A DNA stretch of 64,000 nucleotides from Olivibacter ginsenosidimutans (GTDB taxonomy: Bacteria; Bacteroidota; Bacteroidia; Sphingobacteriales; Sphingobacteriaceae). The notes beneath the pieces are model-generated. The model did no database searches, was not told the origin of the DNA, and saw only the letters and a list, made by a program, of their open reading frames with translations. Position numbers and translations under genes: made by a program. The DNA lies in the NCBI RefSeq assembly GCF_039542865.1, contig NZ_BAABIQ010000002.1:12989-76988 (forward strand), written 5' to 3'. Shown piece after piece: positions 4,812 to 48,974 of the stretch (the first letter of the stretch is position 1; every line of letters starts with the position of its first letter).

Positions 4812-5522
4812 CCCTTTTTTTCCTTGTAGCCAATATCCATGCGAAACGATTTTACCTTTACTTTTACCTTTTAGAACTTTACGGAACGTCCGTACCGATT
4901 GGGCATTTCCAGTTAGAATAAAGTTTGCCTGCTGCCATTCGGGCGATTGGACAAGGGGCAATGCGCTGATCCAGTTCTCGTTGCTAAATGAGCCATTTTT
5001 TGAAAATACAGCGTAATTTTTCAATTGTAAAAGATTCGGAATATGGTGGTTCTCTTCGTCCAGTTCTAAATAGAATTGGAAGGAATGCTGGTGCTGCGTC
5101 AGTACGGGTAAGAAGGAACAGACAAGCGCTAAAGAGGTTTCATCACCGAAAATAACGTACTTCTCTACTGATGAATCGTAATAGTTATAGGCTCTCGGCG
5201 GGTTAATATGAACATCATCTCCTACACCCAAACTGTCCATAAAACAGCTTCCGGGAGCATTTCCATGTAGGTGGACAATTAATTCCAACAGGCCGTTGGT
5301 AGTATCAACATAAGAAATGGTATATCTTCGTGCGTCTGTATCACTCACACGAAAATCGATGAAGCTTCCCATGCCAACATGTACATCTTTAAAATTCCCG
5401 CTGAATTGAATCCGTTTGATGGTTTCGGATAGATAATCGACCTTGGTAGTAATCATCGATAACGACTTGGCGGATAAGAGACGATCGAAAACATCAAATA
5501 CCCATTTTGGAGCGCTTGGCAT
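4806..5522 (-). CDS. siderophore-interacting protein (FAD-binding_9 / SIP ferric-reductase family)
   Basis: 238 aa with an N-terminal FAD-binding beta-barrel and a C-terminal NAD-binding-like region of the ViuB/SIP type. ATG at 5520..5522. Its stop overlaps the MarR stop convergently. Confidence 0.7.
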   Translation of the reverse strand: MPSAPKWVFDVFDRLLSAKSLSMITTKVDYLSETIKRIQFSGNFKDVHVGMGSFIDFRVSDTDARRYTISYVDTTNGLLELIVHLHGNAPGSCFMDSLGVGDDVHINPPRAYNYYDSSVEKYVIFGDETSLALVCSFLPVLTQHQHSFQFYLELDEENHHIPNLLQLKNYAVFSKNGSFSNENWISALPLVQSPEWQQANFILTGNAQSVRTFRKVLKGKSKGKIVSHGYWLQGKKGL

Positions 5523-5811
5523 AATCTTTAATTTTTTTCAAAGAAACCAAGAGTAAGCCCTCCAAAAAAGACTGATATAGGGTAAGTATTGGATTAATCG
5601 CGGTTTTTCTGTCGGAAAGATAAAGCGGTCATCCCAACAATTTTGGTAAATAGCCTGGAAAAGTAAGGATAATCGTCGTATCCCAATTGGAAAAAGATAC
5701 CATCTCGCACCTAAATTTATAACATTTCATTTCAATTCTAAGTCTCCAGAAAAAATCTACGAACTTATTCCGCATAAAAATGTTAGCCTAGTAGGTTTAA
5801 AAAAATATAGC

Positions 5812-6042
5812 ATGATAATGAAAAATCAATGTTTAACGAGTAAAATTGGAAGTGCCGCTGTGGGACAGGCCGCAGGTGGTCGGGTAGCGCTCGGAGCGAT
5901 GGTCATAGGAGCCTTGGCTGTTGGAGCAATGGCGATTGGTGCACTCGCAATCGGTGTACTTCGCATAGGGAAAGGAAAAATTGGTAGCTTGCATATTCAT
6001 GAGCTGAAAATCGACAAACTCATTGTAAAAGATCAAAAATAG
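5812..6042 (+). CDS. small glycine-zipper membrane peptide (hypothetical)
   Basis: 76 aa with a repeated GxxxG/AxxxG motif (GALAVGAMAIGALAIGVLRIG) forming one or two predicted TM helices. No other support. Confidence 0.3.
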   Translation: MIMKNQCLTSKIGSAAVGQAAGGRVALGAMVIGALAVGAMAIGALAIGVLRIGKGKIGSLHIHELKIDKLIVKDQK

Positions 6043-6238
6043 CACGACTAATTAATAACGGTGTTTATCCGCCGGAAGGATTACCCTATGAGCGACAGCT
6101 ACACACACTTTTCAAATCGATCATGAAAGGATATGGAGAAAAATAAAAGATGGACGAACTTGTAAAACCCCTTATCAAAGACGTGAATATAGATTTAACA
6201 CCTATTTAATACTGGTTATTTACTTTTGTGTCATTCGT

Positions 6239-6844
6239 ATGGCGCAACAAATAACAGACGAAATCATTGCTCAATTGAGAACCGGCAGCAAGCAGGCTTT
6301 TACACTAGTGTTTAAACAGTATTGGAAAAAACTATATGCCATTGCTTATCGACGTGTAGAAGACGAAGCCGCCGCCGAAGATATTGTACAGGAAATTTTT
6401 ATTGCTTTGTGGGATAAGCATAGTCAATTTACGATCAATAGCGCCAATATTGAATTTTATTTACTTAAAGCCGTAAAGAGCAGGGTGATCAATTACTATG
6501 TTTCGCAGAAAGTAAAAAGGGATATGTTGGCAATGGCTTTAATGCGAATGGAACAGTTTAGTGATCTTGAACAAGTAGGAGCAGGAGCACGTTATCAAGA
6601 GCTAGAAGCTTTAATCGATAAAGAGATTGATACTTTACCACCTACGATGAAGGCAATATTTTTAATGAAAAGTAATAATCACTCAATTGCCAGTATTTCC
6701 AGTACGTTAAACCTAGCCGAACAAACGGTAAAAAACAACCTCACCAAAGCTTCTCATCGCCTCCGGAAGTCACTTTTACAAAAATTTTCAGATGAGAAGC
6801 TGGCCACCATTATTGTCACTGCGTTTTTCTTCACAAAAAGTTAA
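6239..6844 (+). CDS. RNA polymerase ECF-type sigma-70 factor
   Basis: 201 aa with sigma region 2 (YWKKLYAIAYRRVEDEAAAEDIVQEIFIALW) and a C-terminal region-4 HTH. Followed by a FecR gene. A TAnnTTTG-like motif (tacttttg, 6221..6228) lies just upstream. Confidence 0.9.
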   Translation: MAQQITDEIIAQLRTGSKQAFTLVFKQYWKKLYAIAYRRVEDEAAAEDIVQEIFIALWDKHSQFTINSANIEFYLLKAVKSRVINYYVSQKVKRDMLAMALMRMEQFSDLEQVGAGARYQELEALIDKEIDTLPPTMKAIFLMKSNNHSIASISSTLNLAEQTVKNNLTKASHRLRKSLLQKFSDEKLATIIVTAFFFTKS

Positions 6845-6917
6845 CAAAAAAAACATCTGTATTGGAGGTACTTCTGGCCGGTCCGCTTGTATACCAGTAA
6901 AAGTAACATAAGTACAA

Positions 6918-7898
6918 GTGGATAAAGATCAATTTTTACTATTATTAAAAAAATACCAAGAAGATAATTTGAACGAAGAGGAGTGTGAGGTCCTGGAAAA
7001 TTGGTATAATTCTTATGGTTACAGCGAGGACATCAAACCACTGGAAAACCAATATAAAACAAAGTCCATTGAAAACCGCTTGTCTAAAAATATCTCCGGG
7101 CACATACAGCGGAAAAATACAGGCAGAATAAGGCAGGCAAGAAAATGGACAGTTGCAGCAAGCTTGCTATTGGGTTCAATTTTAGCCACTTATTGGTTTT
7201 TCCGTAGCAATATGGAAAGAACTGGTTTTGCTTCTGCAGGAGATAAAAAACCATTATACGACACAGTTTTGACGGCAATCGGAAAAATGAAAAAAATCAT
7301 TCTTCCGGATAGTTCGGAGGTTTGGCTTAATGCCAATAGCCAGATCCATTATGCCCCAACAAATTTCAGAGAAAAAAGAGACGTTTTTTTGGATAAAGGA
7401 GAAGCCTTTTTTGCTGTCGAAGAAAATCCGAAAAGTCCGTTTCAAGTTCATACCATCGATTTGAACACCCAGGTTTTAGGAACGAAGTTTAATGTGAAAG
7501 CTTATCCTGAATTGGATTACGCTACCGTCCACGTGAAAACAGGAAAGGTAAAAGTGACCACTAAACAAGGGGTTTTAATGGATACCATATCTGCAGGTAA
7601 CGGTCTGCGTTATGATCGCCTTAAAAATACCTGGCTCTCTGATAATCGTTTTGCACTACAAGCCGGGGAATGGATAGATGGCCGGATTACGCTTAATGAA
7701 GCGACTTTTGATGAGCTCGCTGCGGTGCTATATAACCGATTTCAGATTCGGTTAATCCGTGCTATGACCTTATCAAAGAATTACCGATATACCATTACTA
7801 TTTTACAGAATAAACCGTTGGAGGAAACGTTGCGGCTCATTTGTGCCGTACATCGCACTAACTACAAACAACATGGAAAAACAGTAACGATTTTTTAA
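6918..7898 (+). CDS. FecR family anti-sigma factor
   Basis: 326 aa with an N-terminal cytoplasmic segment, a single TM (WTVAASLLLGSILATYWFF), and a periplasmic FecR domain. GTG start. Confidence 0.9.
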   Translation: MDKDQFLLLLKKYQEDNLNEEECEVLENWYNSYGYSEDIKPLENQYKTKSIENRLSKNISGHIQRKNTGRIRQARKWTVAASLLLGSILATYWFFRSNMERTGFASAGDKKPLYDTVLTAIGKMKKIILPDSSEVWLNANSQIHYAPTNFREKRDVFLDKGEAFFAVEENPKSPFQVHTIDLNTQVLGTKFNVKAYPELDYATVHVKTGKVKVTTKQGVLMDTISAGNGLRYDRLKNTWLSDNRFALQAGEWIDGRITLNEATFDELAAVLYNRFQIRLIRAMTLSKNYRYTITILQNKPLEETLRLICAVHRTNYKQHGKTVTIF

Positions 7899-8016
7899 AA
7901 AAAACGGCAAGCTGCCCAGGGCTGCCTGCCGGTATCTCCATATAGCCCGTAGTCGCCAAATCACCGAGGCTATATGAATGAACCCGAATAGTTAACAATA
8001 ACGAGTATACAAATAT

Positions 8017-11000
8017 ATGAATTATGATCATAAGCTAAACCAGCTCATTATGAGAACTTTTTTGTTCGTCAGTTTCTTTTTTACCTGCGTCCAGATGCTA
8101 TTAGCCAGCCATTTGAGTGCCCAGGGAATACAAGAAAAAATTAATATTGATTTTAAAAATGAAAATTTAGCCGAGGCCATGGCTAAGTTCGGTAAGCTTA
8201 TTCCGGTACAAATGGCTTACGATGGCACGCTACTACAGCTCTCGAATCATCGCATAAAGGCAAAACATTTTGAAGAAACCGAAGCACAGGAAATATTAAC
8301 TTACCTCTTGTCTAATACTGGGATTACTTATCAAGAAAGTGATGGTAATATTGTGCTGATTAAACGCAATCAGTTGCAACAGTTGAGCAGCATTACTGGT
8401 CAAGTAAAAGATCAGTCTGGCGCACCGCTCCCAGGAGCTAATGTGACGCTCATTGAACTGCAAAAAACCGTGAGTACAGATGAGGAAGGTAATTTTCGAC
8501 TGAGCGTGCCACCAGGGACATATACCCTCGAAGTGAGTTATGTTTCCTATGAATCGCAACGACGAGAATCCATACAAATAACTGAAAATCAGAAATTAAC
8601 AATCAATTTTGATCTTAAAGAGGCAAAGGGCGTGCTTAGCGAGGTGGTGGTCATTGGTTATGGAGAGATGAAGAAAAGTGATTTATCGGCGGCTGTATCC
8701 ACCGTTCCAGATCTAGAGCAAGCCACTAAAAGACCCTTGGTAGATGTTCCCAGCATGATCCAGGGAAAAGTGCCTGGTGTAACGGTGGTTAGTAATGGAG
8801 GGCATCCCAATAGCACTCCTAAAATTACGATTCGAGGTACCGGATCCATTCAGAACGAAGATCCTTTAGTCGTTGTAGATGGTGTACCCAATGCGCCCTA
8901 TAACCCAGCAGATGTAGAATCGATCACGGTACTAAAAGATGCTGCTTCTGCTGCAATTTATGGTGCATTTGCCGGAGCATCGGGAGTTATACTCATCACC
9001 ACGAAACAGGCCAAAATCGGTGCACCGAGTATTCAGTATGATGCCTTTGCAGGCGCAAAAAGCGCTTGGCGATTACCACAATCGCTTACCGGCGAGCAGG
9101 AAGCCCAAGTGTACAACCAAGCTTATGCAACGGCAGGTCTAAATCTGCCTGATGGTTGGGATGCAACAAAAAATCCGGATGCGCAGATAACACGCACCGA
9201 TTGGATTAATGAGATTTTTCGTACTGGTTTAACTCACCGTCATACCCTAACAGTGAATGCGGGAACGGATAAATTTGCGACTCTCTTGCAAGGACGATAT
9301 GAAAAAAATGAAGGAACCTTATTAAATACCTTCAATGAAAACCTTTCTTTACGCTTTAATGCCCGTTACGATTTTACCGATCATCTGAAATTAAAGCAAG
9401 AGGTTTTTTATAATAACAATAGCAGCCGAGGTACCGAAACAGCCAGTGGGTACAGCGGTGCTATTATTTCGGCTATTTATATGCCACGATCAGCAAGCGT
9501 GTATTATCCTGACGGTAGCTTTGGGGGTGTAGGGCCAAAGGATTCGGAGTACCTTGGTATTTTTGGGGATGCCATTAATCCAGTAGCAACCTTATTACGA
9601 AATGATTCCTATAATAAAACAAATGATATTCAATCTATATCCGAATTATCATATTCCGATATTATCCCGGGATTGGATGTATTGTCTCGATTCTCGTACT
9701 ATCAATCAAATCTGTTTTACAAGAATTTCGATCCTCGTCGTACGGAACCGGGTAAACCCAACGATCAGAATATCCTGAGTTACGATGCCGATAAAAATTA
9801 CCATTGGATCTGGGAAAATACGCTGAACTATACCCGCTCTTTCGGAAAACACAATATAGGCGCCATGTTATCCACTACTGCTCAGACAGCTGTATTAAGG
9901 GGATTTGGTATTGCAGCCCGTGATTTTGAACGGGAAGATTATTGGGCACAATTTTTTATCAATGCCTCCGATTTTGATACCGATAGGCCTACGGATAGCC
10001 AAAGTGAAGACCGTAACGTGTCTTATGTCGGTCGTTTATCGTATAGCTGGGCCGATCGTTATTTTGTCACGGCAAGTTATCGAAAAGATATTGCCGGACG
10101 TTTGCCAAAAGGTTACCAAGGGAAGGGGCTCCCAGGTTTAACAGCGGCTTGGAAACTAAGTTCAGAACCATTTTTTAAGGTGTCTGGTATCGATTTATTG
10201 AAATTCCGGGCAAGCTGGGGACGCATCGGAAACTTGTCGACCATACCGATTAATTATGGTTACCAAACCTTGAGCAGTAACACCACGTACCAAATTGGGG
10301 ATGGAGCGCCTATTACCACCGCTTGGTATATTGCTAACCAGTTTAATCCTGCTCTTTCTTGGGAAACTTCCGAACAAATTGACATAGGAATGGACCTGAG
10401 TATACTACAGGAGCGTCTAACCATGACCGCCGACTATTTTAAAAAGAAAACGTATGATCTGATTCAAGATAAAACAACCGATTGGCCAAATACTTTCGGC
10501 TTAGGATCACCTAAAATTAACGAAGGAGAAATTCGCAATGAAGGTTTAGAATTAGCCTTAAACTGGAAAGACAAGATAGGCGAAGTATCGTACAATATTG
10601 GCGGCAATGTGGCCACCTTGAAAAACCGAGTCAGTTATATCTCTGAAGATCCGGATGCATTTTGGACCCACGGAGATGCATGGAGAGGTATTTTAACACC
10701 ATTCCGTTCAAAGGTTGGAGAACCATACTATTCTTATTGGTTGGTACAGACGAATGGATTATTCCAAAGCGATGCGGAAGCTCAATCCTATGTAGGTCCT
10801 GAAGGTACTCCCATACAACCAGATGCAAAAGCCGGCGATTTGAAGTTTGTTGACCAGAATAATGATGGACAGATTAATGATCTCGACCGCGTTTATATGG
10901 GCAATGCTTTTCCTAAATTTACCTATGGTTTTACAGCAAACCTGAACTGGAAAAACTTCGACCTTAGCTTATTTTTACAGGGTGTCGGTGGCGCGAAACT

Positions 11001-11385
11001 GTTCAACGCTTTTAAGCAATCTACCTTGAATGCCGGTGAACAAGGCTATAACCGTTGGGATAAAATCCTAGATGCTTGGTCTGCCTCAAACACCGATTCA
11101 GATATTCCGCGTATCAATGCGAAAGATCCTAACAAAAACTTTTCAACGAACTCAGACTGGTTTTTGGAGAGTGGAAATTACCTCCGTTTAAAAAATGTAA
11201 TGTTGGGTTATACTTTTTTCAAACTTCCGCGAAACATGAAATTACATGTTTACATCACCGGAGAAAATTTACTCACTTTTACCCAATATAGTGGAATGGA
11301 TCCAGAAGTAGGCGGAGTGGGGATGGACGGAGGACAATATCCGGTTTCCAGGTCCTATGCATTGGGTGTTAACTTAACGTTTTAA
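8017..11385 (+). CDS. SusC/RagA family TonB-linked outer membrane protein with N-terminal STN signalling domain
   Basis: 1122 aa with signal peptide, STN domain, carboxypeptidase-regulatory-like domain, plug and beta-barrel. It ends in Phe and is immediately followed by a SusD-like gene. Confidence 0.9.
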   Translation: MNYDHKLNQLIMRTFLFVSFFFTCVQMLLASHLSAQGIQEKINIDFKNENLAEAMAKFGKLIPVQMAYDGTLLQLSNHRIKAKHFEETEAQEILTYLLSNTGITYQESDGNIVLIKRNQLQQLSSITGQVKDQSGAPLPGANVTLIELQKTVSTDEEGNFRLSVPPGTYTLEVSYVSYESQRRESIQITENQKLTINFDLKEAKGVLSEVVVIGYGEMKKSDLSAAVSTVPDLEQATKRPLVDVPSMIQGKVPGVTVVSNGGHPNSTPKITIRGTGSIQNEDPLVVVDGVPNAPYNPADVESITVLKDAASAAIYGAFAGASGVILITTKQAKIGAPSIQYDAFAGAKSAWRLPQSLTGEQEAQVYNQAYATAGLNLPDGWDATKNPDAQITRTDWINEIFRTGLTHRHTLTVNAGTDKFATLLQGRYEKNEGTLLNTFNENLSLRFNARYDFTDHLKLKQEVFYNNNSSRGTETASGYSGAIISAIYMPRSASVYYPDGSFGGVGPKDSEYLGIFGDAINPVATLLRNDSYNKTNDIQSISELSYSDIIPGLDVLSRFSYYQSNLFYKNFDPRRTEPGKPNDQNILSYDADKNYHWIWENTLNYTRSFGKHNIGAMLSTTAQTAVLRGFGIAARDFEREDYWAQFFINASDFDTDRPTDSQSEDRNVSYVGRLSYSWADRYFVTASYRKDIAGRLPKGYQGKGLPGLTAAWKLSSEPFFKVSGIDLLKFRASWGRIGNLSTIPINYGYQTLSSNTTYQIGDGAPITTAWYIANQFNPALSWETSEQIDIGMDLSILQERLTMTADYFKKKTYDLIQDKTTDWPNTFGLGSPKINEGEIRNEGLELALNWKDKIGEVSYNIGGNVATLKNRVSYISEDPDAFWTHGDAWRGILTPFRSKVGEPYYSYWLVQTNGLFQSDAEAQSYVGPEGTPIQPDAKAGDLKFVDQNNDGQINDLDRVYMGNAFPKFTYGFTANLNWKNFDLSLFLQGVGGAKLFNAFKQSTLNAGEQGYNRWDKILDAWSASNTDSDIPRINAKDPNKNFSTNSDWFLESGNYLRLKNVMLGYTFFKLPRNMKLHVYITGENLLTFTQYSGMDPEVGGVGMDGGQYPVSRSYALGVNLTF

Positions 11386-11396
11386 TGATTTGATCC

Positions 11397-12999
11397 ATGA
11401 TAAAGATAATTCAATATAGCAAATATTTCCTGAGCGTGTTTACAACACTAACCCTGTGGTCTTGTTCGAAAGACTGGGTAGATACGAAACCTTACGGTAG
11501 TCCATCTACAGGAACATTTTGGCAAAGTGAAAAAGATATCGAGCAAGCTTTAAATGCCATGTATGTGCCCATGCGGTATGAATCAACTTGGGGGCGCGAC
11601 TTGTTTAGTATGCAAAATGCGAGCGACGACATTATCACCGGAAGGGTGAAGGCAGATTTCGATAATATTAAAAATTTTATTCCTACGGGAAGGGAAGGCT
11701 ATATGTCTGCGGGTTGGAATGATGTATACTGGATGATGAATAAAGCCAACCAAGCTATACAGGGCATACCAACAACAGAGAACGTTAGTGATGAGGTAAA
11801 AAACAAAGCATTGGGAGAAGCTTATTTTATGCGTGCCTTCGCTCATTTTTGGATGGCGTATTTGTGGGGACATAAAGATCAGGGTGTACCATTTGACGGG
11901 CCCGAAAATCCGGAATATGGTAACCGGATTGCGCCACAATTGCCCTCAGTTACCGATAACTATGCTCAAATTATCAGCGATCTCGAAAAAGCGGCTGATT
12001 TGCTACCCCTGTTTGCTACCTATTCGGATGCCCAAAAAGGCAGAGCACATAAGGTGGCAGCATGGGGATATATGGTAAAAACCTACGCGTATTGGGCACA
12101 ATACGATCCTTCTAAATGGGAATTGATCCCTGCTTTAGTTGACCGGATAAGGGATGAGGGTGGTCGAGCCTTGATTACCGGAAAAGGTAGCGGTAAAGAA
12201 AATTTTCGCGCGGTATTTAAAATTGAAAATAATTGGGGTTCGGAATATATATGGTCGGTAACCTCGGGCACCCAAGGTGGTTCGGAATTCCTAGGGGTTG
12301 TATTGGAAAATACAGGTTGGGGTGCTTATAACGGTTGGGGCTATTTTACGCCTACCGAAGAACTGTATGATGCCTTCGAAACGGGTGCCGAGGAGGGGTA
12401 TTACGGTGCTAAATTTTGGCGATAAGTTTACGTTTTTTGGACAGGAACGTGAATATTATTCAACCAATAGCCTTTCCGGTTTTATGATGGGCAAATACCT
12501 GGATCCCTATACGTATGGTTCAAATGGTGAATCAGGATCGAATGATATGATCAATCAAAATGGGGATTATCCTACCACTCGGCTAAACCTGCCCTTAATG
12601 CGTTATGCCGAGATGTTATTGTTTAAGGCAGAGGCATTGCTAATGACGGGTAGAAACAGTGATGCAGCAGAACCTCTGAACGAAATTCGAAATAGGGTAG
12701 GCTTACCCATTATTAGCAATCCAACACTCGCCGATTTAAAACATGAAAGGAGAGTGGAATTAGCCTGTGAATGGACCGATCGAGTGGCTGATTTAAAACG
12801 CTGGGGTGATTTTGACTATTTAAGGATGGCTTTGCATGGACGCGATCATGTGCGTAAAACCGATCCACATTCGGATTATAAGGTTATTGAAGTGTGGCCA
12901 GCGCGTAATTTCGATCCGAATAAACATATGGCTTGGCCAATTAACCCAGATGAGATTGCAAAAAGCAATGGTGTTTATAAACAAACACCTGGCTGGTAA
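11397..12999 (+). pseudogene. SusD/RagB family lipoprotein interrupted by a frameshift in a T4 run (12414..12417); may be a sequencing error rather than a true pseudogene
   Basis: ORF 11397..12425 has a lipoprotein signal (LWSC) and a SusD-like N-terminus. ORF 12298..12999 continues the SusD C-terminus in the +1 frame. Removing one T from aaatttt joins them as ...GAKFGDKFTFFGQ... to give a protein of about 530 aa. Confidence 0.7.
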
Positions 13000-13046
13000 A
13001 CAATAAATAAATAAAACATACCTTAGCACTACCAAATAATAGATTT

Positions 13047-14030
13047 ATGAAAACATTCATTTATGTCATCTCCATTCTAACTGCCATTTTTATGTGTTCT
13101 TCCTGTAGGAAAGAAAATGAATTATTGTCAGCACAAAAGACAACTACGTCAAATGCAAACGTCATGTCTACAGCTGTAACCATTCATATGGAAAATGCGG
13201 CAGATTGGATGTCTTATTTACCGGATACCGTATCAATCAATCAATTGAGCATACCTGGAACACACGATAGTGGGGCGAGACATGAACCTATTGGCGGTAC
13301 CGCAAAGACACAAAACCTGTCGATAGCCGACCAGCTGACAGCAGGGGTTCGTTTTTTAGATATCCGATGCCGTCATTATCAGGGCGCTTTTGTCATCCAT
13401 CACGGTTCGATTTATCAACAGTTAAACTTCGACGATGTATTACTCGCCTGCAAAACATTTTTGCAACAGCATCCTTCGGAGACAATTGTTATGAGTGTAA
13501 AAGAAGAATATAATGCGGAGGGTAATACGAAAACATTTGCCGAGGAGTTTGATCGTTATGTTGAGCAAGATCCGTCATTTTGGTATCTAGAAGCCGGAAT
13601 TCCTATTTTAGGGGAAACTCGAGGTAAAATAGTCTTGTTCAGGCGTTTTTCTGCTCCTGAAGCAAAAGGTATCGATGCCAGTCACGATTGGGCAGACAAA
13701 GCCACTTTTACCATTACTAATCAAAATTACACGCTTAGGATACAAGATCAATATGAAGTGAGCAACAATGACACTAAATTTCAAGCAGTTACTGATTTAT
13801 TTGAGGAAGCCTTGCAAGGCAATCAAGACGACCAAACATTGTTTGTTAATTTTACGAGTGGTTATAGAAATGTATTTTTGGGAATTCCAAATATTCCCGA
13901 TGTGGCCAATGCCATTAACCCGAAGTTATCGGCTTACTTCGATAATGCGATTGCCGGAAGATACGGTATAGTACCCATGGATTTTGTAAATGATGAATTC
14001 GCTTGGAAGATCATACAGAAAAATTTCTAA
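13047..14030 (+). CDS. phosphatidylinositol-specific phospholipase C X-domain protein (PLC-like phosphodiesterase), secreted
   Basis: 327 aa with signal peptide and the LSIPGTHDSGA motif characteristic of bacterial PI-PLC X domains. Confidence 0.8.
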   Translation: MKTFIYVISILTAIFMCSSCRKENELLSAQKTTTSNANVMSTAVTIHMENAADWMSYLPDTVSINQLSIPGTHDSGARHEPIGGTAKTQNLSIADQLTAGVRFLDIRCRHYQGAFVIHHGSIYQQLNFDDVLLACKTFLQQHPSETIVMSVKEEYNAEGNTKTFAEEFDRYVEQDPSFWYLEAGIPILGETRGKIVLFRRFSAPEAKGIDASHDWADKATFTITNQNYTLRIQDQYEVSNNDTKFQAVTDLFEEALQGNQDDQTLFVNFTSGYRNVFLGIPNIPDVANAINPKLSAYFDNAIAGRYGIVPMDFVNDEFAWKIIQKNF

Positions 14031-14031
14031 C

Positions 14032-15930
14032 ATGCGTAAAGTTATTTTATATGGTATTTTCTGGTTTTGTTTTGGGCCTTTACAGGCCCAAAACAAAGCA
14101 GATTTAGGTGAACTGTTTCACGAGTTGATGTTTGGTAACAAGCCATTAAAGACAGGGAACTTGCATGGCCACAGCCATAATGACTATAAGCAAGACATTC
14201 CCTTTCTTTCTGCCTATTATTCAGGAATGGAATCGATTGAAGCAGATGTATTCCTAAAAGATGGCGAACTTTACGTGGCGCATGAAGAAAGTGAGATTAC
14301 AGCCAATCGTACCCTAACTTCGCTGTACTTGGAACCGCTATATGCACGTTTTGTAGCAAATGGCTATCGTCCCTTCGCCGATAGTACCAAAAAATTGCAA
14401 CTGGTTATTGATATTAAAGAAAATTATCAAGTGGTAATACCTGCACTCATCCGGCAATTGAAACCGTATATGGAGATGATCGATGGGAAAAAACAGCAAC
14501 AGGTTGTTCGGATTGTGTTGAGCGGTGACATGCCTAAACCTGATCATTACCAAGATTATCCCGATTTTATTTCCTTTGATGGAAGACCGGGCGTTTTCTA
14601 TCGGCCTGATCAACTAAAACGGATAGCCATGATCAGTAATTCGATGGATGCCTATACCCATTGGAATGGCAAAGGCATACTTCCTGAAACGGATAGAAAA
14701 GAGATGGAAGCCGTCGTACAAGCAGCCAAGCAGATGGGTAAACCTTTTCGTTTTTGGGCGACCCCCGATAGCAAGAATACCTGGATTGTACTTGAAAAAT
14801 TGGGAGTAATCTGGATTAATACGGATCATCCCTTATTGCTAAATGAATGGTTAACCCATTTACCTTATAACCGTTTCCGTTTAACGACTCCTTTGTCGAT
14901 TTATCAACCGACGTATGCTTCCGATGGTAAAAATAGGGTGGCTAAAAATGTTATTTTATTGATCGGCGACGGCATGGGGTCAGGGCAGGTAAAGGCCGCC
15001 CTTTCTGTCAACCATGGTCAGCTTAATTTGTCCCAAATGCGTTATATGGGTTTTTCCCGTACCGAATCGGCTAATGCAGGCAACACGGATTCAGGTGCAG
15101 GAGCTTCCGCGATAGCTACGGGACAATCTACCAATAACGAAAGTATTAGCGTAGATACCGCAGGAAAACCTTTACTTCGGCTGACCGATATCTTGGCAAA
15201 AAAAGGAAAGAAAAATGGCTTGCTCAGCACCGGAGATCTAACAGATGCTACCCCTGCAGCTTTTTATGCGGCTAATATCGACCGTTCAGCTTCAGAAGCT
15301 ATCGCACAGGATTTGTTGCAAAGTCCAATTGCCTTTATCGGTGGCACACAACCTGGTTTTTTTCATGACTCGCAGAAAAGAAGAAGCTATTTCCAGCAAC
15401 TGAGGGCGAAAGGATTTAGTGTGCTGGAAGATGTTATGCAAATTAATACGCAGAAGAAAATTGCCTTATTTTTACCTGATTCGGTGACTCGTCCGGTAAA
15501 AGAAGGACGTGGAAACGTGCTACAACGTATGGTCAGTGAAAGTATAGTACGTTTGAAATCGCCAAACGGTTTCTTTTTGATGGCAGAAGGTGCCCAAATT
15601 GATTATGGTGGACATGCCAACGATCTCCCTTATGTAATTACCGAGACGCTCGATTTCGACCAAGCAGTGGGAGAGGCATTGCGTTTTGCAGATCAAGACG
15701 GAAACACGCTAGTAATTGTAACGGCAGATCATGAGACGGGAGGATTATCACTATTGGATGTAGATGAACAACAGGGATATGTAGAAGGAAATTTTTCTAC
15801 TAATGATCATACCAATCTGATGGTTCCGGTATTGGCCTATGGTCCAGGTGCAGAAAAATTTATCGGCATCTATAAAAATACCGCTTTATTCGACAAAATT
15901 TTAACTGCTGTAGGGGTGAAGGATGAATAA
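14032..15930 (+). CDS. fusion protein: PLC-like phosphodiesterase (HxHNDY type) N-terminal domain + alkaline phosphatase C-terminal domain, secreted
   Basis: Signal peptide MRKVILYGIFWFCFGPLQAQ, ATG at 14032. The N-terminal half has LHGHSHNDYKQD...EADVF. The C-terminal half has the alkaline phosphatase active-site region (LLIGDGMG...TDSGAGASAIATG) and metal-site residues (DHETGG). Confidence 0.75.
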   Translation: MRKVILYGIFWFCFGPLQAQNKADLGELFHELMFGNKPLKTGNLHGHSHNDYKQDIPFLSAYYSGMESIEADVFLKDGELYVAHEESEITANRTLTSLYLEPLYARFVANGYRPFADSTKKLQLVIDIKENYQVVIPALIRQLKPYMEMIDGKKQQQVVRIVLSGDMPKPDHYQDYPDFISFDGRPGVFYRPDQLKRIAMISNSMDAYTHWNGKGILPETDRKEMEAVVQAAKQMGKPFRFWATPDSKNTWIVLEKLGVIWINTDHPLLLNEWLTHLPYNRFRLTTPLSIYQPTYASDGKNRVAKNVILLIGDGMGSGQVKAALSVNHGQLNLSQMRYMGFSRTESANAGNTDSGAGASAIATGQSTNNESISVDTAGKPLLRLTDILAKKGKKNGLLSTGDLTDATPAAFYAANIDRSASEAIAQDLLQSPIAFIGGTQPGFFHDSQKRRSYFQQLRAKGFSVLEDVMQINTQKKIALFLPDSVTRPVKEGRGNVLQRMVSESIVRLKSPNGFFLMAEGAQIDYGGHANDLPYVITETLDFDQAVGEALRFADQDGNTLVIVTADHETGGLSLLDVDEQQGYVEGNFSTNDHTNLMVPVLAYGPGAEKFIGIYKNTALFDKILTAVGVKDE

Positions 15931-16020
15931 GTTGATTCAGTCCTACAGCAAAAAAAGTGTATAAAAAAAGTGTATAATAAAGTTCGGTAAATACGATAAC
16001 CCAATTTTACATTTCACTTG

Positions 16021-17031
16021 TTATTTACCTGCTGCTATATCTTTTTTAATCAACTCACGCGTGACTTCCAAAGCGTCTTTTCCCCTAGCAGGAACATCTG
16101 GAATTACACCGGTACCTTCCCAACCTTCTTCGCTGTTCGGACCAACAACCATTTTAACTGGGACAAAAGCGATGAGGTTATTTTTTAACGGAACAAACGA
16201 ACCAGCAATTCCTGCTCCGGCTGTGGTATCGCCAACAATGGTTGCCCGTTCTAATTTTTGCATCGCATAAGCTAAACCTTCAGAGGCAGAGCCCGTTCCA
16301 GGTCCCACTAAAATGTAAACTTTAGCATTTGGATTGCGTTTGCCTGGCACATAGGAATAGGTCCACTCTTGTTCATCCATTTTACGATCTTTATAGAAAC
16401 CGTTTAGGTAAAATTGCTCATTACCGGCATTGTAAAAATAAGAAGCAATGAAACGACCCATATGTCCCGTACCGCCCGGATTATGGCGAATATCCAAAAT
16501 GACGTACTTGCTATAAGCAGCCATATTCATCGCTGCTGCGGCCATTTCGAAAGCGTCCTGATTACCCCAAAAAGGACCAGGAACATCAAGGTAGGCAGTT
16601 GAGGTTTCGGCATCAATCTCCACCTTTTTAAATCCATAATTTTGCTTAATCATCCGCTCCTGTTCTGGATCACGATTACGAACACCACTGCGGCGTTCTT
16701 GTGGTTGAGTTAGTCGCTTATAGGTGTCTTCATCCTTCATTACACGCAAATGCACATCTTTGTGTACCTTTCTTAAATCGTTTGTTAACATCTTGCCTAA
16801 CGAATCTTCCGATAGATGCTTGTATTTTCCTGCTGCTTCATTGGCAAATAAAGCTACCTTATATTTTTCAGAAATTTCAGGAAAGGGATATACCGCTATT
16901 AACTTATTGGCCAAGGTTTGCACCAATTCATGTACATCGGTATCATTTACAAGCTGGGCCCTCAAAGGTAAGTAGCTGGTAAAAACGAACAGGAATATAC
17001 CAAATAAGGTCTTAGAATGGGATAATTTCAT
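16021..17031 (-). CDS. S41 family peptidase (C-terminal processing protease-like)
   Basis: Signal peptide MKLSHSKTLFGIFLFVFTSYLPLRAQ and S41 catalytic region (DIRHNPGGTG ... LVGPGTGSASEGLA). Start moved to the internal ATG at 17029..17031. Confidence 0.8.
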   Translation of the reverse strand: MKLSHSKTLFGIFLFVFTSYLPLRAQLVNDTDVHELVQTLANKLIAVYPFPEISEKYKVALFANEAAGKYKHLSEDSLGKMLTNDLRKVHKDVHLRVMKDEDTYKRLTQPQERRSGVRNRDPEQERMIKQNYGFKKVEIDAETSTAYLDVPGPFWGNQDAFEMAAAAMNMAAYSKYVILDIRHNPGGTGHMGRFIASYFYNAGNEQFYLNGFYKDRKMDEQEWTYSYVPGKRNPNAKVYILVGPGTGSASEGLAYAMQKLERATIVGDTTAGAGIAGSFVPLKNNLIAFVPVKMVVGPNSEEGWEGTGVIPDVPARGKDALEVTRELIKKDIAAGK

Positions 17032-17153
17032 AAAAAAGCAGGTTAAATTTGCAGCGCAAATATAGGAAAAGCGCGTGCTCATTCTGCTTTTGATGAAGGG
17101 TTTAACAATGTATTAACAAGGCAAATGCAGTTGAATCTGTGATAATAAACAAA

Positions 17154-17173
17154 AAAAGCCCCTAAGGGCTTTT
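17154..17173 (-). terminator. rho-independent terminator hairpin (AAAGCCC-CTAA-GGGCTTT) flanked by A and T runs
   Basis: 8-bp stem, 4-nt loop, T-run on the minus strand. It lies just downstream of the minus-strand gene that ends at 17200. Confidence 0.5.
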
Positions 17174-17199
17174 CTGCTACTTTTACGATAGCACACCTG

Positions 17200-17634
17200 T
17201 TATTCAAAGGTGGTTACGACTTGAGTAATCTGGTAATCGTCTTTGCTCTGTGCAACGGTTACATAGTCAACACGCGAGAACGTCGCATATTTCATGGTAA
17301 CTTTGGCAATAGCGACACCCTTATTCTCATCAACAATACTGTAATCGGTTTCGCAGTCTTGACGAATGTTTTTTTGTTTTTTCAAAAAGCCTAATACCTG
17401 TTCTTTACCGAAGGTATGACCTGCTTTTTTAGTGCTATACCGCTGCTGGAATTGTTCGCTGAACAGTTGGTCGAGTCCGGCTACTTGCCCATTCGTTAAC
17501 GCATCTGTATACAAGTCTAAGCTGTGGTTAATAGCAGCCACAGTAGAACGGTTAGCTTTACCTTCGGTGTTGGCAAATGCACTATTGCTTATGAAGATGA
17601 TAGCGGCTGCAATGGAGGTGATGAACGTTTTCAT
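17200..17634 (-). CDS. secreted NTF2-like/SnoaL-like fold protein (hypothetical)
   Basis: 144 aa with signal peptide MKTFITSIAAAIIFISNSAFA. Size and pattern are consistent with the NTF2-like superfamily. Confidence 0.45.
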   Translation of the reverse strand: MKTFITSIAAAIIFISNSAFANTEGKANRSTVAAINHSLDLYTDALTNGQVAGLDQLFSEQFQQRYSTKKAGHTFGKEQVLGFLKKQKNIRQDCETDYSIVDENKGVAIAKVTMKYATFSRVDYVTVAQSKDDYQITQVVTTFE

Positions 17635-24464: not shown

Positions 24465-24989
24465 ATGGAGACAGGCCAGTGGACATTTCAGAAAATAGCG
24501 TCATTTAAACGCCTATTCCAGTTTTATTGGGAAAGAGTGTTTGCACATTGTCTATTTTATTCAAAAGATCTGAATACCTCTAAAGATTTAACACAGAATA
24601 TTTTTCTCGATTTGTGGGAGAGGGGTAAGGAGTTTCCGGATCAAGAAAGTTTGGAAAAATACCTGTCTCGTTGTGCAAAATACCAAGTACTGAATTACTT
24701 TCACTATCAGAACACTACACAAAGATGCCCAATAGAGGATATACCCGAACAACCCGATTATCGGAATAATCCGGAATACCTATTTCAATATAAACAACTC
24801 GCCGAAAATCTTGAACGTTTGATTGATTCGCTACGAGAACCATGCCGTACGGTTTTTTGTATGAGTAGAAAACAAAATCTTAGCCATAAAGCCATCTCTA
24901 ACCAAATGGGCATATCCATTAGTACAGTGGAGTATCACATGAGCAATGCGCTACGTTACCTTCGAAAACAATTAGAAGCCCAACGCTAA
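24465..24989 (+). CDS. RNA polymerase ECF-type sigma-70 factor
   Basis: 174 aa with sigma region 2 (DLTQNIFLDLWERG) and region 4 (SHKAISNQMGISISTVEYHMSNALRYLRKQ). Followed by a FecR gene. Confidence 0.85.
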   Translation: METGQWTFQKIASFKRLFQFYWERVFAHCLFYSKDLNTSKDLTQNIFLDLWERGKEFPDQESLEKYLSRCAKYQVLNYFHYQNTTQRCPIEDIPEQPDYRNNPEYLFQYKQLAENLERLIDSLREPCRTVFCMSRKQNLSHKAISNQMGISISTVEYHMSNALRYLRKQLEAQR

Positions 24990-25155
24990 ACCTTTTTTAT
25001 TTTTTTTTAACTGATTTACAGTGCCTTGATAAAATCTTTTATTTTTTCACTGGGGTAACGCTTCCTTACTGTTAGATACCATAAATGGATGGAAGATTTG
25101 ACCTGCCAATGCATGCCCAGCCATGGCTGCGAAAGGTGGATAAAAACCAGGTGAA

Positions 25156-26100
25156 ATGGATAGAATAGATCCCGAGCTATTAAAAAGATATGCGGATGGA
25201 AGCTGCACAGATGAGGAACGCGCTATCGTGGAGGAGTGGTTAGATAAGGAGGATAATTTATTTGATCAAGAAGCTGAACCATTGCCGCAATACCAGTTGG
25301 ATAAACAGAAACGCGCACTATGGAATAGTTTTGTCGAAAAAGCTTTCCTGTACTCTGCAAGATTAAGATGGTGGAGATGGAGTTTGTATGTCAGTCTATT
25401 GGTATTGACAGGACTGGCCATACAAAGTATTTTCCACACCATACAGATCTATAAAGCTCCTGTAGTAATGCATACTCAAGAAGTACCACCGGGTAAAAAT
25501 TTGAAGCTCGTTTTGCCGGATAGCAGTACTGTTTGGCTTGCTGGGGGAAGCACATTGCGTTACCCGGAAACGTTTGCCGACTCTTTGCGTGAATTAAATT
25601 TGGTAGATGGAGAAATCTATTTACATGTTGTGCAAAAAAAGAACCAACCCTTCCGGCTTATTACCGATGGGGCGGTCATTCAGGTTTTGGGTACGCGTTT
25701 CTATGTAGAAAATCGACAGCATAATACACGTATGCGGATTGCACTTGAAGAGGGCAGCATTCGCTTTAGCCGAGGTACTAGTCGACAACTCCTTCAGCCA
25801 GGCGATCAATTGAGCTATTGGAAAGCAGATAGTACGTTCGAGATGCACCGCATTGCTCCAACTGATATTGCTAGATGGAGCAATGGCTTAATCCAATTTA
25901 ATCATACCGTCTTGCAGGAAGCGCTAGAAAAATTGGAAAACCATTACGGGGTTCGGTTTTTAATAGAGGGAAATCCAAACCTGAAACAACCGATAACAGG
26001 CAAATTTGATAACCTTCCGCTATCCCGTGTACTGCATCTTATGGAAGGCGTAACCAACCTGCACTTTAAGCAAGAGGGAAAAACAATAAAAATCAATTAA
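25156..26100 (+). CDS. FecR family anti-sigma factor
   Basis: 314 aa with a zinc-finger-like N-terminus (DGSCTDEERAIVEEWL), a single TM and a FecR periplasmic domain. Confidence 0.9.
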   Translation: MDRIDPELLKRYADGSCTDEERAIVEEWLDKEDNLFDQEAEPLPQYQLDKQKRALWNSFVEKAFLYSARLRWWRWSLYVSLLVLTGLAIQSIFHTIQIYKAPVVMHTQEVPPGKNLKLVLPDSSTVWLAGGSTLRYPETFADSLRELNLVDGEIYLHVVQKKNQPFRLITDGAVIQVLGTRFYVENRQHNTRMRIALEEGSIRFSRGTSRQLLQPGDQLSYWKADSTFEMHRIAPTDIARWSNGLIQFNHTVLQEALEKLENHYGVRFLIEGNPNLKQPITGKFDNLPLSRVLHLMEGVTNLHFKQEGKTIKIN

Positions 26101-26256
26101 TAAAAAAGAGGTATGACGAAAAAAAATAGGGCTAGCCCTGCCATTGGCTTGTTAAGCAATTCAGTTACATAAAAAGTACCGTCAGCGTGTTCCAGCACGC
26201 CGACGGATAAATACATCAATTTTTCAATTCATGATTTAATTAAGAACTTAAAACTA

Positions 26257-28915: not shown

Positions 28916-28923
28916 TTCAGCCT

Positions 28924-48592: not shown

Positions 48593-48964
48593 ATGAATAA
48601 AGCAATCGTACAACAAATGTTTCAGGACGTTTGGAAAAGTGCAAACCCTGATCCTAAAAATATCCTAAAATACTTTTCAAGCAATTTTATCCAGGAAATT
48701 GATAGTAAGAGCTATACCCGAACGGAATTTCTGCACAACTTAGGGGTGCTTAAAAAAACGACGCTTGCCATTGATATCGCTATTAAATCATTACAAGAAA
48801 TTGGTCATACCGTTTTTTCCAACCACATCATTAGGCTATCATTTCACGACGGAACGACAAATTTAATCCATGTCATCGCATCTTTTCAATTGGAGAACCA
48901 CCAAATCACATCGAGTGATGAGCTGACATTTGTTGAACAACCCACAAGTAGTTATCTGCATTAA
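48593..48964 (+). CDS. hypothetical protein (NTF2/SnoaL-like size and pattern)
   Basis: The ORF-track start is TTG at 48572. The first ATG at 48593 gives MNKAIVQQMFQDVW..., 123 aa. Confidence 0.4.
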   Translation: MNKAIVQQMFQDVWKSANPDPKNILKYFSSNFIQEIDSKSYTRTEFLHNLGVLKKTTLAIDIAIKSLQEIGHTVFSNHIIRLSFHDGTTNLIHVIASFQLENHQITSSDELTFVEQPTSSYLH

Positions 48965-48974
48965 GTTGAATAAT

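Follow-up and report, generated by a model that had tools for sequence, protein, structure and literature searches.

The six-gene locus that we analysed in Olivibacter ginsenosidimutans (6239-15930 of the window, the whole 64,000-nt stretch of DNA under study) is likely a Pus2/PUSII-type phosphate utilisation system that has acquired a Bacillus-type PI-PLC lipoprotein. The preliminary description had proposed a system that captures phosphoinositol-type organophosphates at the outer membrane and imports them, controlled by a sigma/anti-sigma pair, and this is supported by full-length homology to the Pus2 system of Flavobacterium johnsoniae together with a conserved signature Trp. That interpretation was essentially right, but such import is already known from the F. 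johnsoniae Pus systems. The machinery had been called poorly characterised, which is out of date, as the class has had a name since 2019-2021 and genetic and structural tests of it followed in 2026. What is fresh is that a Pus2 locus carries a PI-PLC that is probably surface-exposed.

Gene content, conservation and regulation

Open reading frames and domain matches bore out the co-directional sigma/FecR/SusC/SusD/PI-PLC/fusion array, with all six genes on the forward strand and at the positions first assigned to them:

6239-6844, + strand: ECF-type sigma-70 factor, 201 aa (Sigma70_r2 46 bits, Sigma70_r4_2 35.7 bits, TIGR02985 119 bits)
6918-7898, + strand: FecR-type anti-sigma, 326 aa, GTG start (FecR 70.4 bits, FecR_C 35.3 bits)
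7899-8016, + strand: FecR-SusC intergenic region, two predicted hairpins (folding against shuffles)
8017-11385, + strand: SusC/PusC2-like TonB-dependent transporter, 1122 aa (TIGR04056 793 bits, Plug, CarboxypepD_reg)
11397-12999, + strand: SusD/PusD2-like surface lipoprotein, interrupted (SusD-like_3 70 bits, SusD_RagB 103 bits)
13047-14030, + strand: Bacillus-type PI-PLC lipoprotein, 327 aa (PI-PLC-X PF00388 55.8 bits)
14032-14931, + strand: fusion protein, signal peptide and N-terminal PLC/GDPD-like domain, a putative phosphodiesterase TIM barrel
14932-15930, + strand: fusion protein, C-terminal PhoA-type alkaline phosphatase domain, compact and TAB5-like (Alk_phosphatase 170.7 bits)

From the sigma factor gene to the fusion gene, the intergenic gaps are 73, 118, 11, 47 and 1 nt. 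The host of the locus is a soil bacterium. Upstream, the array is flanked by SIP-like, MarR and UvrA-like ABC genes, and downstream by genes for an S41 peptidase, a SnoaL-like protein and a Na/H exchanger. A domain search of 308-24193, which takes in the locus and its flanks, found no glycoside hydrolase, lyase or carbohydrate esterase domain, as had been claimed for the cargo. The locus does not combine a SusCD pair with carbohydrate-active enzymes, the combination that defines a canonical polysaccharide utilisation locus.

Chance does not explain the array, since the same order recurs in a relative (locus L081) and, minus the PI-PLC, in many Bacteroidota families. The relative has the six genes in identical order with an intact SusD, and also carries a Metallophos gene and a PusCD1-like pair downstream. 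We counted species-level genomes across Bacteroidota with at least 6 kb of sequence upstream of the fusion gene; in 26 of these 63, the gene immediately upstream of the fusion encodes a PusD2-like SusD, and the 26 come from Sphingobacteriaceae, Cytophagales, Chitinophagaceae and Flavobacteriaceae. A second SusD type, PusD1-like, adjoins the fusion in 11 more loci. The array had been expected to be conserved as a unit. This holds for the sigma/FecR/SusCD/fusion core and fails for the PI-PLC-X gene, which most genomes lack and which is an occasional accessory outside that core. It adjoins SusCD pairs in seven lineages, at varying positions, and lies next to Pus-type SusCD in Sinomicrobium, Flavobacterium, Pedobacter, Chryseobacterium and Parapedobacter.

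The sigma/anti-sigma pair occupies the same position as in the F. johnsoniae Pus2 locus (L089), which encodes sigma, FecR, SusC (1127 aa), SusD (511 aa) and PhoA1 (607 aa). The sigma factor is 58% identical to its orthologue in the relative and 27% to that of Pus2, and FecR has a single hydrophobic segment (WTVAASLLLGSILATYWFF). Between FecR and SusC, the 7899-8016 region folds with a minimum free energy of -33.2 kcal/mol (z = -3.3 against shuffles) and had no match in Rfam. Read by eye, several related loci seem to have stem-loop-like inverted repeats at this position, with one apparently compensatory pair between the window and the relative. These hairpins may act as a terminator or attenuator ahead of a sigma-dependent susC promoter. 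We looked for a Pho box and an ECF promoter at the locus and identified neither.

A PusC2-like transporter and an interrupted PusD2-like lipoprotein

The SusC protein aligns with F. johnsoniae PusC2 over residues 13-1122 (35% identity, 609 bits) and is 84% identical to SusC of the relative. It had been described as STN-containing. The SusC assignment stands, while the STN match itself, at 26.4 bits, lies under the Pfam cut-off of 28.4; PusC2 likewise gives a weak STN match. We counted protein length as supporting a signalling extension: among the loci inspected, SusCs of this type linked to sigma/FecR are mostly ~1110-1130 aa long, whereas those with an HTCS regulator instead have 990-1038 aa, a difference of mostly ~100 aa, with exceptions at 1084 aa (L066) and 1037 aa (L088). 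The best solved-structure match for both SusC (409 bits) and SusD (124 bits) is the Bacteroides thetaiotaomicron dextran utilisome.

The SusD family assignment was correct (SusD-like_3, SusD_RagB), but the reading frame is not intact. SusD is read in two frames, from open reading frames at 11397-12425 and 12298-12999. Using tblastn against the intact 535-aa SusD of the relative, which is 89% identical on both sides, we placed the frameshift at a 2-nt deletion at 12387, where only one g is left of the Asp codon in '...EEGDPRR...'. Without the frameshift the protein would have 534-535 aa, with its lipobox at C23; as it stands it ends at 342 aa and lacks the last 200 residues, and with them the SusD_RagB domain. 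Neither half contains any other stop or indel relative to the intact orthologue. As written, the frameshift would leave a transporter without its lid, and either the system was recently inactivated or the assembly contains an error.

The reconstructed SusD matches F. johnsoniae PusD2 over residues 22-534 (42% identity, 381 bits, E 5e-131). This goes beyond the BLASTP value of <=1e-100 taken as a strong PusD match in a recent preprint, though the database size differs (bioRxiv 10.64898/2026.09.03.749221). The same preprint names W297 as the ligand-stacking Trp of PusD2. In an alignment of 31 SusD orthologues every sequence has this signature Trp, which is W314 in the window and sits at position 297 in F. 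johnsoniae and the 511-aa Flavobacterium forms. The window SusD also clusters with PusD2-like proteins, apart from the cluster that carries a DW[GYF]D motif.

Phosphoesterases, proposed mechanism and alternatives

Domain searches on the two enzymes, which had been suggested as a check, upheld both the PI-PLC-X and the Alk_phosphatase assignments. The PI-PLC scored well above the PF00388 cut-off of 23.1 and aligned with Bacillus cereus PI-PLC (1PTD/1GYM) over residues 47-320 with 156 bits. All five catalytic residues of 1GYM (H32/D33/R69/H82/D274) are kept, as H73/D74/R107/H119/D312. The PI-PLC X-domain enzyme was thus rightly recognised, but it had been taken as plainly secreted, and its N-terminus carries a lipoprotein signal (..FMCSSC21-RKENE). 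The lipobox Cys is present in 11 of 11 homologues inspected, followed in most by K/Q and D/E-rich residues (C-NKEND, C-SKKDD, C-TQEDE, C-SQEEE, C-SKEDA, C-SKEEV). The Bacteroidota lipoprotein export signal is K-(D/E)2 or Q-A-(D/E)2 (PMC5080379), which the residues in most of these homologues fit and C21-RKENE resembles, and on this short motif the enzyme is probably surface-exposed.

The PLC-like/alkaline-phosphatase fusion was confirmed with an amended start. Its frame is open from 13990, but the deposited protein has 632 aa, so the start is most likely 14032. Its signal peptide is plain, with cleavage at about LQA|QN, which implies a periplasmic location. The N-terminal domain is a weak GDPD match (GDPD_2 23.9-25.1 bits, just below the cut-off of 27), and its fold is intermediate between GDPD and Ca-dependent PI-PLC, as close to either. 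The alkaline phosphatase domain retains the Ser nucleophile, the metal ligands and the phosphate-binding Arg; the ligands correspond to Asp51, Asp153/Thr155, Glu322, Asp327/His331, Asp369/His370 and His412 in E. coli PhoA numbering. Over its full length the fusion is 42% identical to F. johnsoniae PhoA1 (457 bits).

From these assignments we infer the following sequence of events. The lipid-anchored PI-PLC, probably flipped to the surface, would cleave phosphatidylinositol, and possibly GPI-type lipids, outside the cell, yielding diacylglycerol and inositol 1,2-cyclic phosphate or inositol-1-phosphate. This step is suggested by family membership, the intact catalytic residues and the export-like N-terminal motif. 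By analogy with PusCD2, the SusD-like lid would bind the inositol-phosphate or glycerophosphoinositol head group, stacked on W314, and SusC would take it in using TonB energy. In the periplasm, the PLC/GDPD-like domain of the fusion could open the phosphodiester that is left, in GroPI or cyclic IP, and the PhoA domain, judged by its catalytic residues, would then free orthophosphate. Ligand-loaded SusC would signal through its N-terminal extension to FecR, which would free the ECF sigma factor and raise transcription of the stretch from susC to the phosphatase gene. A second input is probably phosphate limitation, as in F. johnsoniae.

If the frameshift in SusD is real, then the cluster may be a decaying one, with a dead transporter and with enzymes that are relics or act alone. 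The deletion that cuts SusD to 342 aa is what speaks for this, and we regard it as possible though on balance unlikely. Both SusD halves remain 89% identical to the intact orthologue and are otherwise undamaged, all other genes are intact with their catalytic residues kept, and a sequencing or assembly error would account equally well for a lone small indel in a draft, as would a very recent laboratory mutation. Another reading places the PI-PLC mainly among effectors directed at hosts or competitors, releasing GPI-anchored proteins or damaging eukaryotic membranes, its proximity to SusCD being incidental. PI-PLCs of the Bacillus, Listeria and Staphylococcus type are secreted virulence factors, and two of four further homologues that we looked up stand alone with no SusCD pair nearby. 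Here, however, the gene sits within the operon, 47 nt past susD and 1 nt ahead of the phosphatase gene, the arrangement is kept in the relative, and Pus-type SusCD adjacency recurs in five other genera, which makes a mainly effector role highly improbable.

The locus might instead import another organophosphate, such as glycerophosphodiesters in general, sugar phosphates, GPI-anchor glycans or phosphorylated glycans like fragments of teichoic acid or phosphomannan. Phosphoinositol would then be a side activity; the GDPD-like/PhoA fusion would be the principal enzyme, and the PI-PLC would have joined late and widened the range. The absence of the PI-PLC from the core in most genomes, the closeness of SusC and SusD to the dextran pair of B. 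thetaiotaomicron and the N-domain fold, as near GDPDs as PI-PLCs, are all in keeping with this. Against it, the locus has no CAZyme in or beside it. PusD2 binds GroPI and IP1, pus2 gives residual growth on PtdIns/GroPI, and the recruitment of PI-PLC-X beside such SusCD pairs in seven separate lineages points to inositol lipids. We therefore consider a different organophosphate substrate unlikely, and favour a Pus2-type system with an added PI-PLC.

Relation to known Pus, Sus and PI-PLC systems

In F. johnsoniae, Pus2 is induced by phosphate depletion (Lidbury 2021). PUSII comprises PusCD2 (Fjoh_3250/1) and PhoA1 (Fjoh_3249, pf00245+pf13653), and its transcript rises by a log2FC of 7.4 on Pi depletion (PMC8115612). 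The pus1 and pus2 loci together are indispensable for growth on PtdIns/GroPI; PusD2 binds GroPI (Kd 200-400 uM) as well as IP1, and inositol-1-P was found bound in PusCD1 by cryo-EM (Connolly 2026 preprint, bioRxiv 10.64898/2026.09.03.749221). According to the same preprint, Pus2 is merely auxiliary for PtdIns/GroPI, supporting residual growth; its authors suspect that PusCD2 prefers some substrate other than GroPI, and PtdIns, GroPI and IP1 still support growth of a mutant that lacks PhoA1 along with three further monoesterases.

Classical Sus-like loci, such as that of the B. thetaiotaomicron dextran utilisome SusCD (9sje, 8aa4), share with the window the 'pedal-bin' pair and the design of surface enzyme, transporter and periplasmic enzymes, but the window cargo consists of phosphoesterases and includes no CAZyme. 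The PI-PLC belongs to the same fold family as those of B. cereus/thuringiensis (1PTD, 1GYM) and their Staphylococcus and Listeria relatives. The Gram-positive enzymes are freely secreted, whereas that of Olivibacter is a lipoprotein within a nutrient-uptake operon. Likewise, the alkaline phosphatase of the Antarctic bacterium TAB5 (PDB 2W5V) is a single-domain protein, whereas here it is fused behind a PLC/GDPD-like barrel.

With Pus1/PUSI of F. johnsoniae (PusCD1 Fjoh_4168/9, PI-PLC1 Fjoh_4172, calcineurin-like Fjoh_4173) the locus has in common an ECF/anti-sigma-controlled SusCD pair, a PtdIns-directed PLC and a similar working logic, the import of inositol-lipid head groups for phosphorus. 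We nevertheless rejected an identification with Pus1. PusD1-like SusDs have 558-592 aa with DW[GYF]D at residues 78-92, and the marks that we used for this type (~580 aa, a D84-W85-x-D87 pocket) are absent from the window SusD, which is of the PusD2 type. There is no Metallophos or PusD1-like gene anywhere in the window, and the window PI-PLC is a PF00388 lipoprotein, whereas PI-PLC1, called 'Ca2+-dependent' in the ISME paper, is of the PF16670 type, has an SPI signal and is predicted to lie in the periplasm. The surface cleavage step can therefore not be transferred from the F. johnsoniae work.

The closest known system is Pus2 (PusC2 Fjoh_3251, PusD2 Fjoh_3250, PhoA1 Fjoh_3249). Gene order matches from sigma factor to fusion, SusC, SusD and fusion are 35%, 42% and 42% identical at full length, and the PusD2 Trp, the putative N-terminal signalling extension of SusC and the plain signal peptide of the fusion are all shared. 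The window differs in its frameshifted SusD, in regulators that are only 27% identical and in a PF00388 PI-PLC lipoprotein gene, which Pus2 of F. johnsoniae lacks, between susD and the phosphatase gene.

Gene content and the apparently broken SusD gene

Window positions 6239-15930 hold six co-directional genes with matching profiles, separated by intergenic gaps of 73, 118, 11, 47 and 1 nt, and the six-gene array claimed in the preliminary description is thereby confirmed.

Genes of the locus (window coordinates, strand, product and supporting match)
6239-6844 (+): ECF-type sigma factor (profile search)
6918-7898 (+): FecR/FecR_C anti-sigma factor (profile search)
8017-11385 (+): SusC/RagA transporter (TIGR04056, 793 bits; Plug; CarboxypepD_reg)
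11397-12999 (+): SusD protein (profile search)
13047-14030 (+): PI-PLC-X enzyme (55.8 bits against a cut-off of 23.1)
14032-15930 (+): two-domain fusion, its C-terminal half an alkaline phosphatase (170.7 bits)

The STN match of the SusC protein lay slightly below the Pfam cut-off. Domain searches found no carbohydrate-active enzyme within the locus or among its flanking genes on either side, and the earlier statement that glycoside hydrolases are absent holds. The same description had named two enzymes, a PI-PLC X-domain protein and a PLC-like/alkaline-phosphatase fusion. The scores bear out the former and the phosphatase half of the latter, but the N-terminal half of the fusion matched only GDPD_2 and GDPD, both models of glycerophosphodiester phosphodiesterases, and both weakly. 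An assignment of this half to PF16670 (Ca-dependent PI-PLC) was rejected, as that family gave no match at E<=10.

The SusD-family gene is present as described earlier, but not as a single reading frame: it is spread over two frames, with ORFs of 342 and 233 aa. The intact orthologue in L081, a relative with the identical six-gene order, has 535 aa and is 89% identical to the window on both sides of the break. Where it reads ...EEGDPRR..., the window reads ETG, a single g at 12387, and PRR, that is, a 2-nt deletion within an Asp codon conserved in >90% of orthologues. No further defect was seen when the window gene was aligned to the L081 orthologue. We read the break as either a very recent inactivation, making the gene a pseudogene, or an assembly error. 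One alignment column is Trp in 31/31 aligned SusD orthologues; it is W314 in the window and, in Flavobacterium johnsoniae, W297, the conserved Trp of PusD2 (bioRxiv 10.64898/2026.09.03.749221). A DWVD at window SusD residues 26-29 resembles the D-W-x-D pocket motif of PusD1, and we treat it as coincidental because it lies 3 residues past the lipid Cys, not ~60 in, and has no counterpart in F. johnsoniae PusD2. Among the PDB sequences searched, the best SusC/SusD matches, 9sje and 8aa4, belong to the dextran system of B. thetaiotaomicron.

Several neighbouring genes were also recorded. An S41 peptidase gene (16021-17082, -) is convergent with the locus end. It was considered because an ISME figure legend (PMC8115612) names a ctpA S41 peptidase in a phosphate utilisation (Pus) locus, and it was rejected as a component of the system because none of 80 related loci holds a counterpart near the fusion. 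A second cluster at 24465-30063 (+), comprising ECF sigma, FecR, a TonB-dependent receptor (826 aa) and PepSY_TM, is of the siderophore-uptake type and has no relation to the phosphorus locus. Two paralogous SPFH/Band-7 + SHOCT genes (31500-32501 and 49802-50788, +) lie 18 kb apart, preceded by ORFs (30142-31488 and 48930-49655) that have no Pfam match.

Predicted enzyme locations and regulatory region

The PI-PLC carries a lipobox (…FMCSSC21) followed by R-K-E-N-E. The lipobox Cys recurred in 11/11 homologues inspected, most of which have K or Q plus acidic residues after it (C-NKEND, C-SKKDD, C-TQEDE, C-SQEEE and C-SKEDA are examples). In Bacteroidota, the export signal K-(D/E)2 or Q-A-(D/E)2 directs lipoproteins to the cell surface (PMC5080379). 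The enzyme had been described as secreted; it does bear a signal, but Cys21 and the export-like motif, short as it is, point to a lipoprotein with probable surface exposure rather than to plain secretion. Against the Bacillus cereus enzyme (1PTD/1GYM) it scored 156 bits, and the five catalytic residues H32, D33, R69, H82 and D274 aligned with window H73, D74, R107, H119 and D312. The signal peptide of the fusion is of the ordinary kind (…GPLQA|QN), and the fusion homologues lack a lipobox Cys, so the default destination of the protein would be the periplasm. Since it is 100% identical to a deposited O. ginsenosidimutans protein of 632 aa, its start was placed at 14032.

In the fecR-susC intergenic region (7899-8016) two hairpins were predicted (MFE -33.2 kcal/mol, z -3.3), which may form a terminator or attenuator between the regulator genes and an inducible susC promoter. 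An Rfam search of 5000-17500 (E<=1) returned a single chance miRNA match and no family for these hairpins. Inspection by eye points to similar inverted repeats at this position in the related genome loci L005, L008, L009, L010, L012, L013, L017, L018, L081 and L084; one pair appears to be compensatory when the window and L081 are compared. Neither a Pho box nor an ECF-type promoter was found upstream of the sigma gene or between fecR and susC, and in a sigma-70 promoter and terminator scan promoter-like sites were scarcer than in shuffled sequence and terminator-like sites average in number. Only one TAnnTTTG-like box (TACTTTTG, 6221-6228) and one lone TGTCAT were noted by eye, and we draw no conclusion from either. 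The 716-nt gap 5' of the sigma gene contains an ORF (5813-6043, +) for a Gly/Ala-rich hydrophobic peptide of 76 aa (…GALAVGAMAIGALAIGVL…).

Spread and variation of related loci

The ~620-aa fusion is common in Bacteroidota, occurring in Sphingobacteriaceae, Cytophagales, Chitinophagaceae, Flavobacteriaceae and Dysgonomonas. Our comparison set comprised 80 species-level genome loci, 71 with a full-length fusion, and at least 6 kb of upstream sequence was available for 63 of these. Conservation of the array in related genomes had been set as a check, and its core does recur: in 26/63 loci a window-type SusD gene stands immediately 5' of the fusion, on the same strand and behind SusC, most of them with sigma and FecR homologues, and L081 keeps the full six-gene order. 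Clustering all ORFs of the loci provided a second count.

Components of the related loci, counted by ORF clustering
Fusion: 83 loci
SusC: 52 loci
SusD of the window type (PusD2-like): 38 loci
Sigma factor: 32 loci
FecR: 28 loci
Second SusD type (PusD1-like; 558-592 aa; D-W-[GYF]-D at residues 78-92): 12 loci, adjoining the fusion in 11

PusD1-like (D-W-x-D) SusCD pairs adjoin the fusion in L020, L021, L024, L025, L028, L050, L053, L066, L067, L068 and L070. Because they replace the PusD2-like pairs beside it, the fusion is not bound to one transporter type. Its linkage to SusCD-type transporters is phylum-wide, with a PusD2-like SusD nearby in 38 sampled species and a PusD1-like one in ~11 more. 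The regulator is likewise interchangeable, ECF/FecR or a hybrid two-component regulator (HTCS; Y_Y_Y + AraC), the latter taking the place of sigma/FecR in L044, L056, L061, L062, L070 and L084. SusC measures 990-1038 aa in the HTCS loci and mostly ~1110-1130 aa in the inspected sigma/FecR-linked loci of the window type, L066 (1084 aa) and L088 (1037 aa) being exceptions. This gap in length is consistent with an N-terminal signalling domain having been gained or lost together with the regulator type.

Further phosphoesterase genes accompany some loci. A calcineurin-like gene directly precedes the fusion in L020, L024, L028 and L026. An extra gene for alkaline phosphatase only (333-378 aa) directly precedes the full-length fusion in L066, L068 and L070, and lies beside it on the opposite strand in L067, so that two phosphatase genes stand in tandem. 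L081 holds the nearest relative of the window locus, and directly downstream of its array (L081 13097-19292) are a calcineurin-like phosphoesterase gene and a second SusC/SusD pair, with a SusD of 585 aa that has DWGD at residue 82 and is of the PusD1 type. Judged by its gene complement, L081 amounts to a merged Pus2 and Pus1-like supercluster; the window has no such extension.

The PI-PLC-X gene is much rarer than the fusion. It lies beside Pus-type SusCD pairs in seven lineages (the window, L081 with all six genes in the window's order, Sinomicrobium oceani, a Flavobacterium, a Pedobacter, Chryseobacterium proteolyticum and Parapedobacter deserti), placed on either side of the fusion or convergent with it, and stands alone in two other genomes. 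This Bacillus-family lipoprotein is an occasional add-on to Pus-type loci, and seems to have joined them independently in several Bacteroidota lineages. Across the class boundary between Sinomicrobium (L084) and the window, PI-PLC identity reaches 62%, against 40% for SusC, 48% for SusD and 41% for the fusion, and the PI-PLC position differs. This disparity hints that the gene may move laterally between Pus loci.

Proposed mechanism and comparison with the F. johnsoniae Pus systems

The phosphate utilisation systems of F. johnsoniae were described by Lidbury and colleagues, and their genes are strongly upregulated on phosphate depletion (PMC8115612). In PUSI, PusCD1 (Fjoh_4168/9) is accompanied by the periplasmic phosphodiesterases Fjoh_4172 (a 'Ca2+-dependent' PI-PLC) and Fjoh_4173 (calcineurin-like), and PUSII combines PusCD2 (Fjoh_3250/1) and PhoA1 (Fjoh_3249, pf00245 + pf13653) (PMC8115612). 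According to a preprint of September 2026 (bioRxiv 10.64898/2026.09.03.749221), each locus has an ECF sigma/anti-sigma pair, PusD1 and PusD2 alike bind glycerophosphoinositol (GroPI) and inositol-1-phosphate (IP1), a cryo-EM structure of PusCD1 has IP1 bound, and components of Pus systems are spread over terrestrial Bacteroidota, with Pedobacter, Mucilaginibacter and Sphingobacterium among the carriers.

An F. johnsoniae Pus2 locus (L089) has the order sigma, FecR, SusC (1127 aa), SusD (511 aa) and PhoA1 (607 aa). Compared over their full lengths, the window proteins are 35% (SusC, 609 bits), 42% (repaired SusD, 381 bits, E 5e-131) and 42% (fusion, 457 bits) identical to these. On this homology and the shared Trp (W297/W314), the window locus is classed as a Pus2-type system. 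It differs from Pus1 in that its SusD falls outside the D-W-x-D type, its PI-PLC belongs to PF00388 and not to the Ca-dependent kind, and the window has no calcineurin-like gene. The preliminary reading of the locus as an importer of phosphoinositol or other organophosphates agrees with this homology and with the published Pus work. Because of that same agreement the kind of system is a known one, and its portrayal as poorly characterised does not stand.

In the mechanism that we propose as most likely, the lipoprotein PI-PLC would cleave phosphatidylinositol (PtdIns) at the cell surface, freeing inositol cyclic phosphate or IP1. The head group would be caught by SusD on W314 and imported by SusC with TonB energy, after which the periplasmic PLC/GDPD-like domain of the fusion would open whatever diester is left (GroPI or cyclic IP), and the PhoA domain joined to it would free phosphate. 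Signalling would run from ligand-bound SusC, by way of the N-terminal extension of this transporter, to FecR and on to the ECF sigma factor. Gene content, catalytic residues, Pus2 homology, synteny and signal types come from the present analysis, and phosphate-limitation induction, PusD2 binding of GroPI and IP1, and the role of pus2 on PtdIns/GroPI from F. johnsoniae; from these we infer the four steps. The division of labour among an outside PI-PLC, PusCD2 as importer of inositol (cyclic) phosphate, and a PhoA1 PLC/GDPD-like domain that serves as periplasmic cyclic-IP/GroPI diesterase is a tentative but quite possible reading. On that reading the locus may show the 'complete' topology on which the F. 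johnsoniae work had not settled, and the PI-PLC-X lipoprotein would be a mobile accessory module by which an importer of head groups becomes able to use the whole lipid.

If the SusD frameshift is real, the locus may be decaying in this strain, which we consider somewhat unlikely and which would be compatible with our reading of what the locus is. A core system aimed at another organophosphate, with the PI-PLC as a late add-on, we regard as unlikely. That the PI-PLC is an effector present here by accident seems very improbable, given the 47-nt and 1-nt gaps around its gene and its repeated recruitment.

In F. johnsoniae, pus2 contributes to growth on PtdIns/GroPI but is auxiliary only, and the loss of PhoA1 together with three further monoesterases does not prevent growth on PtdIns, GroPI or IP1 (bioRxiv 10.64898/2026.09.03.749221). 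In the same work IP1 was present in the transporter despite the predicted periplasmic location of PI-PLC1, and it was left open whether PtdIns is cleaved extracellularly or in the periplasm. A lipoprotein PI-PLC within a Pus2 locus bears on this question and offers a possible test system. By homology, the Pus class, experimentally supported in Flavobacterium, extends to Olivibacter (Sphingobacteriaceae). The sole feature of the window that is undescribed in PMC8115612 and bioRxiv 10.64898/2026.09.03.749221 is a Pus2 locus with a Bacillus-family PI-PLC, probably a surface lipoprotein; the locus reveals no new kind of machinery and is a modest twist on a known system.
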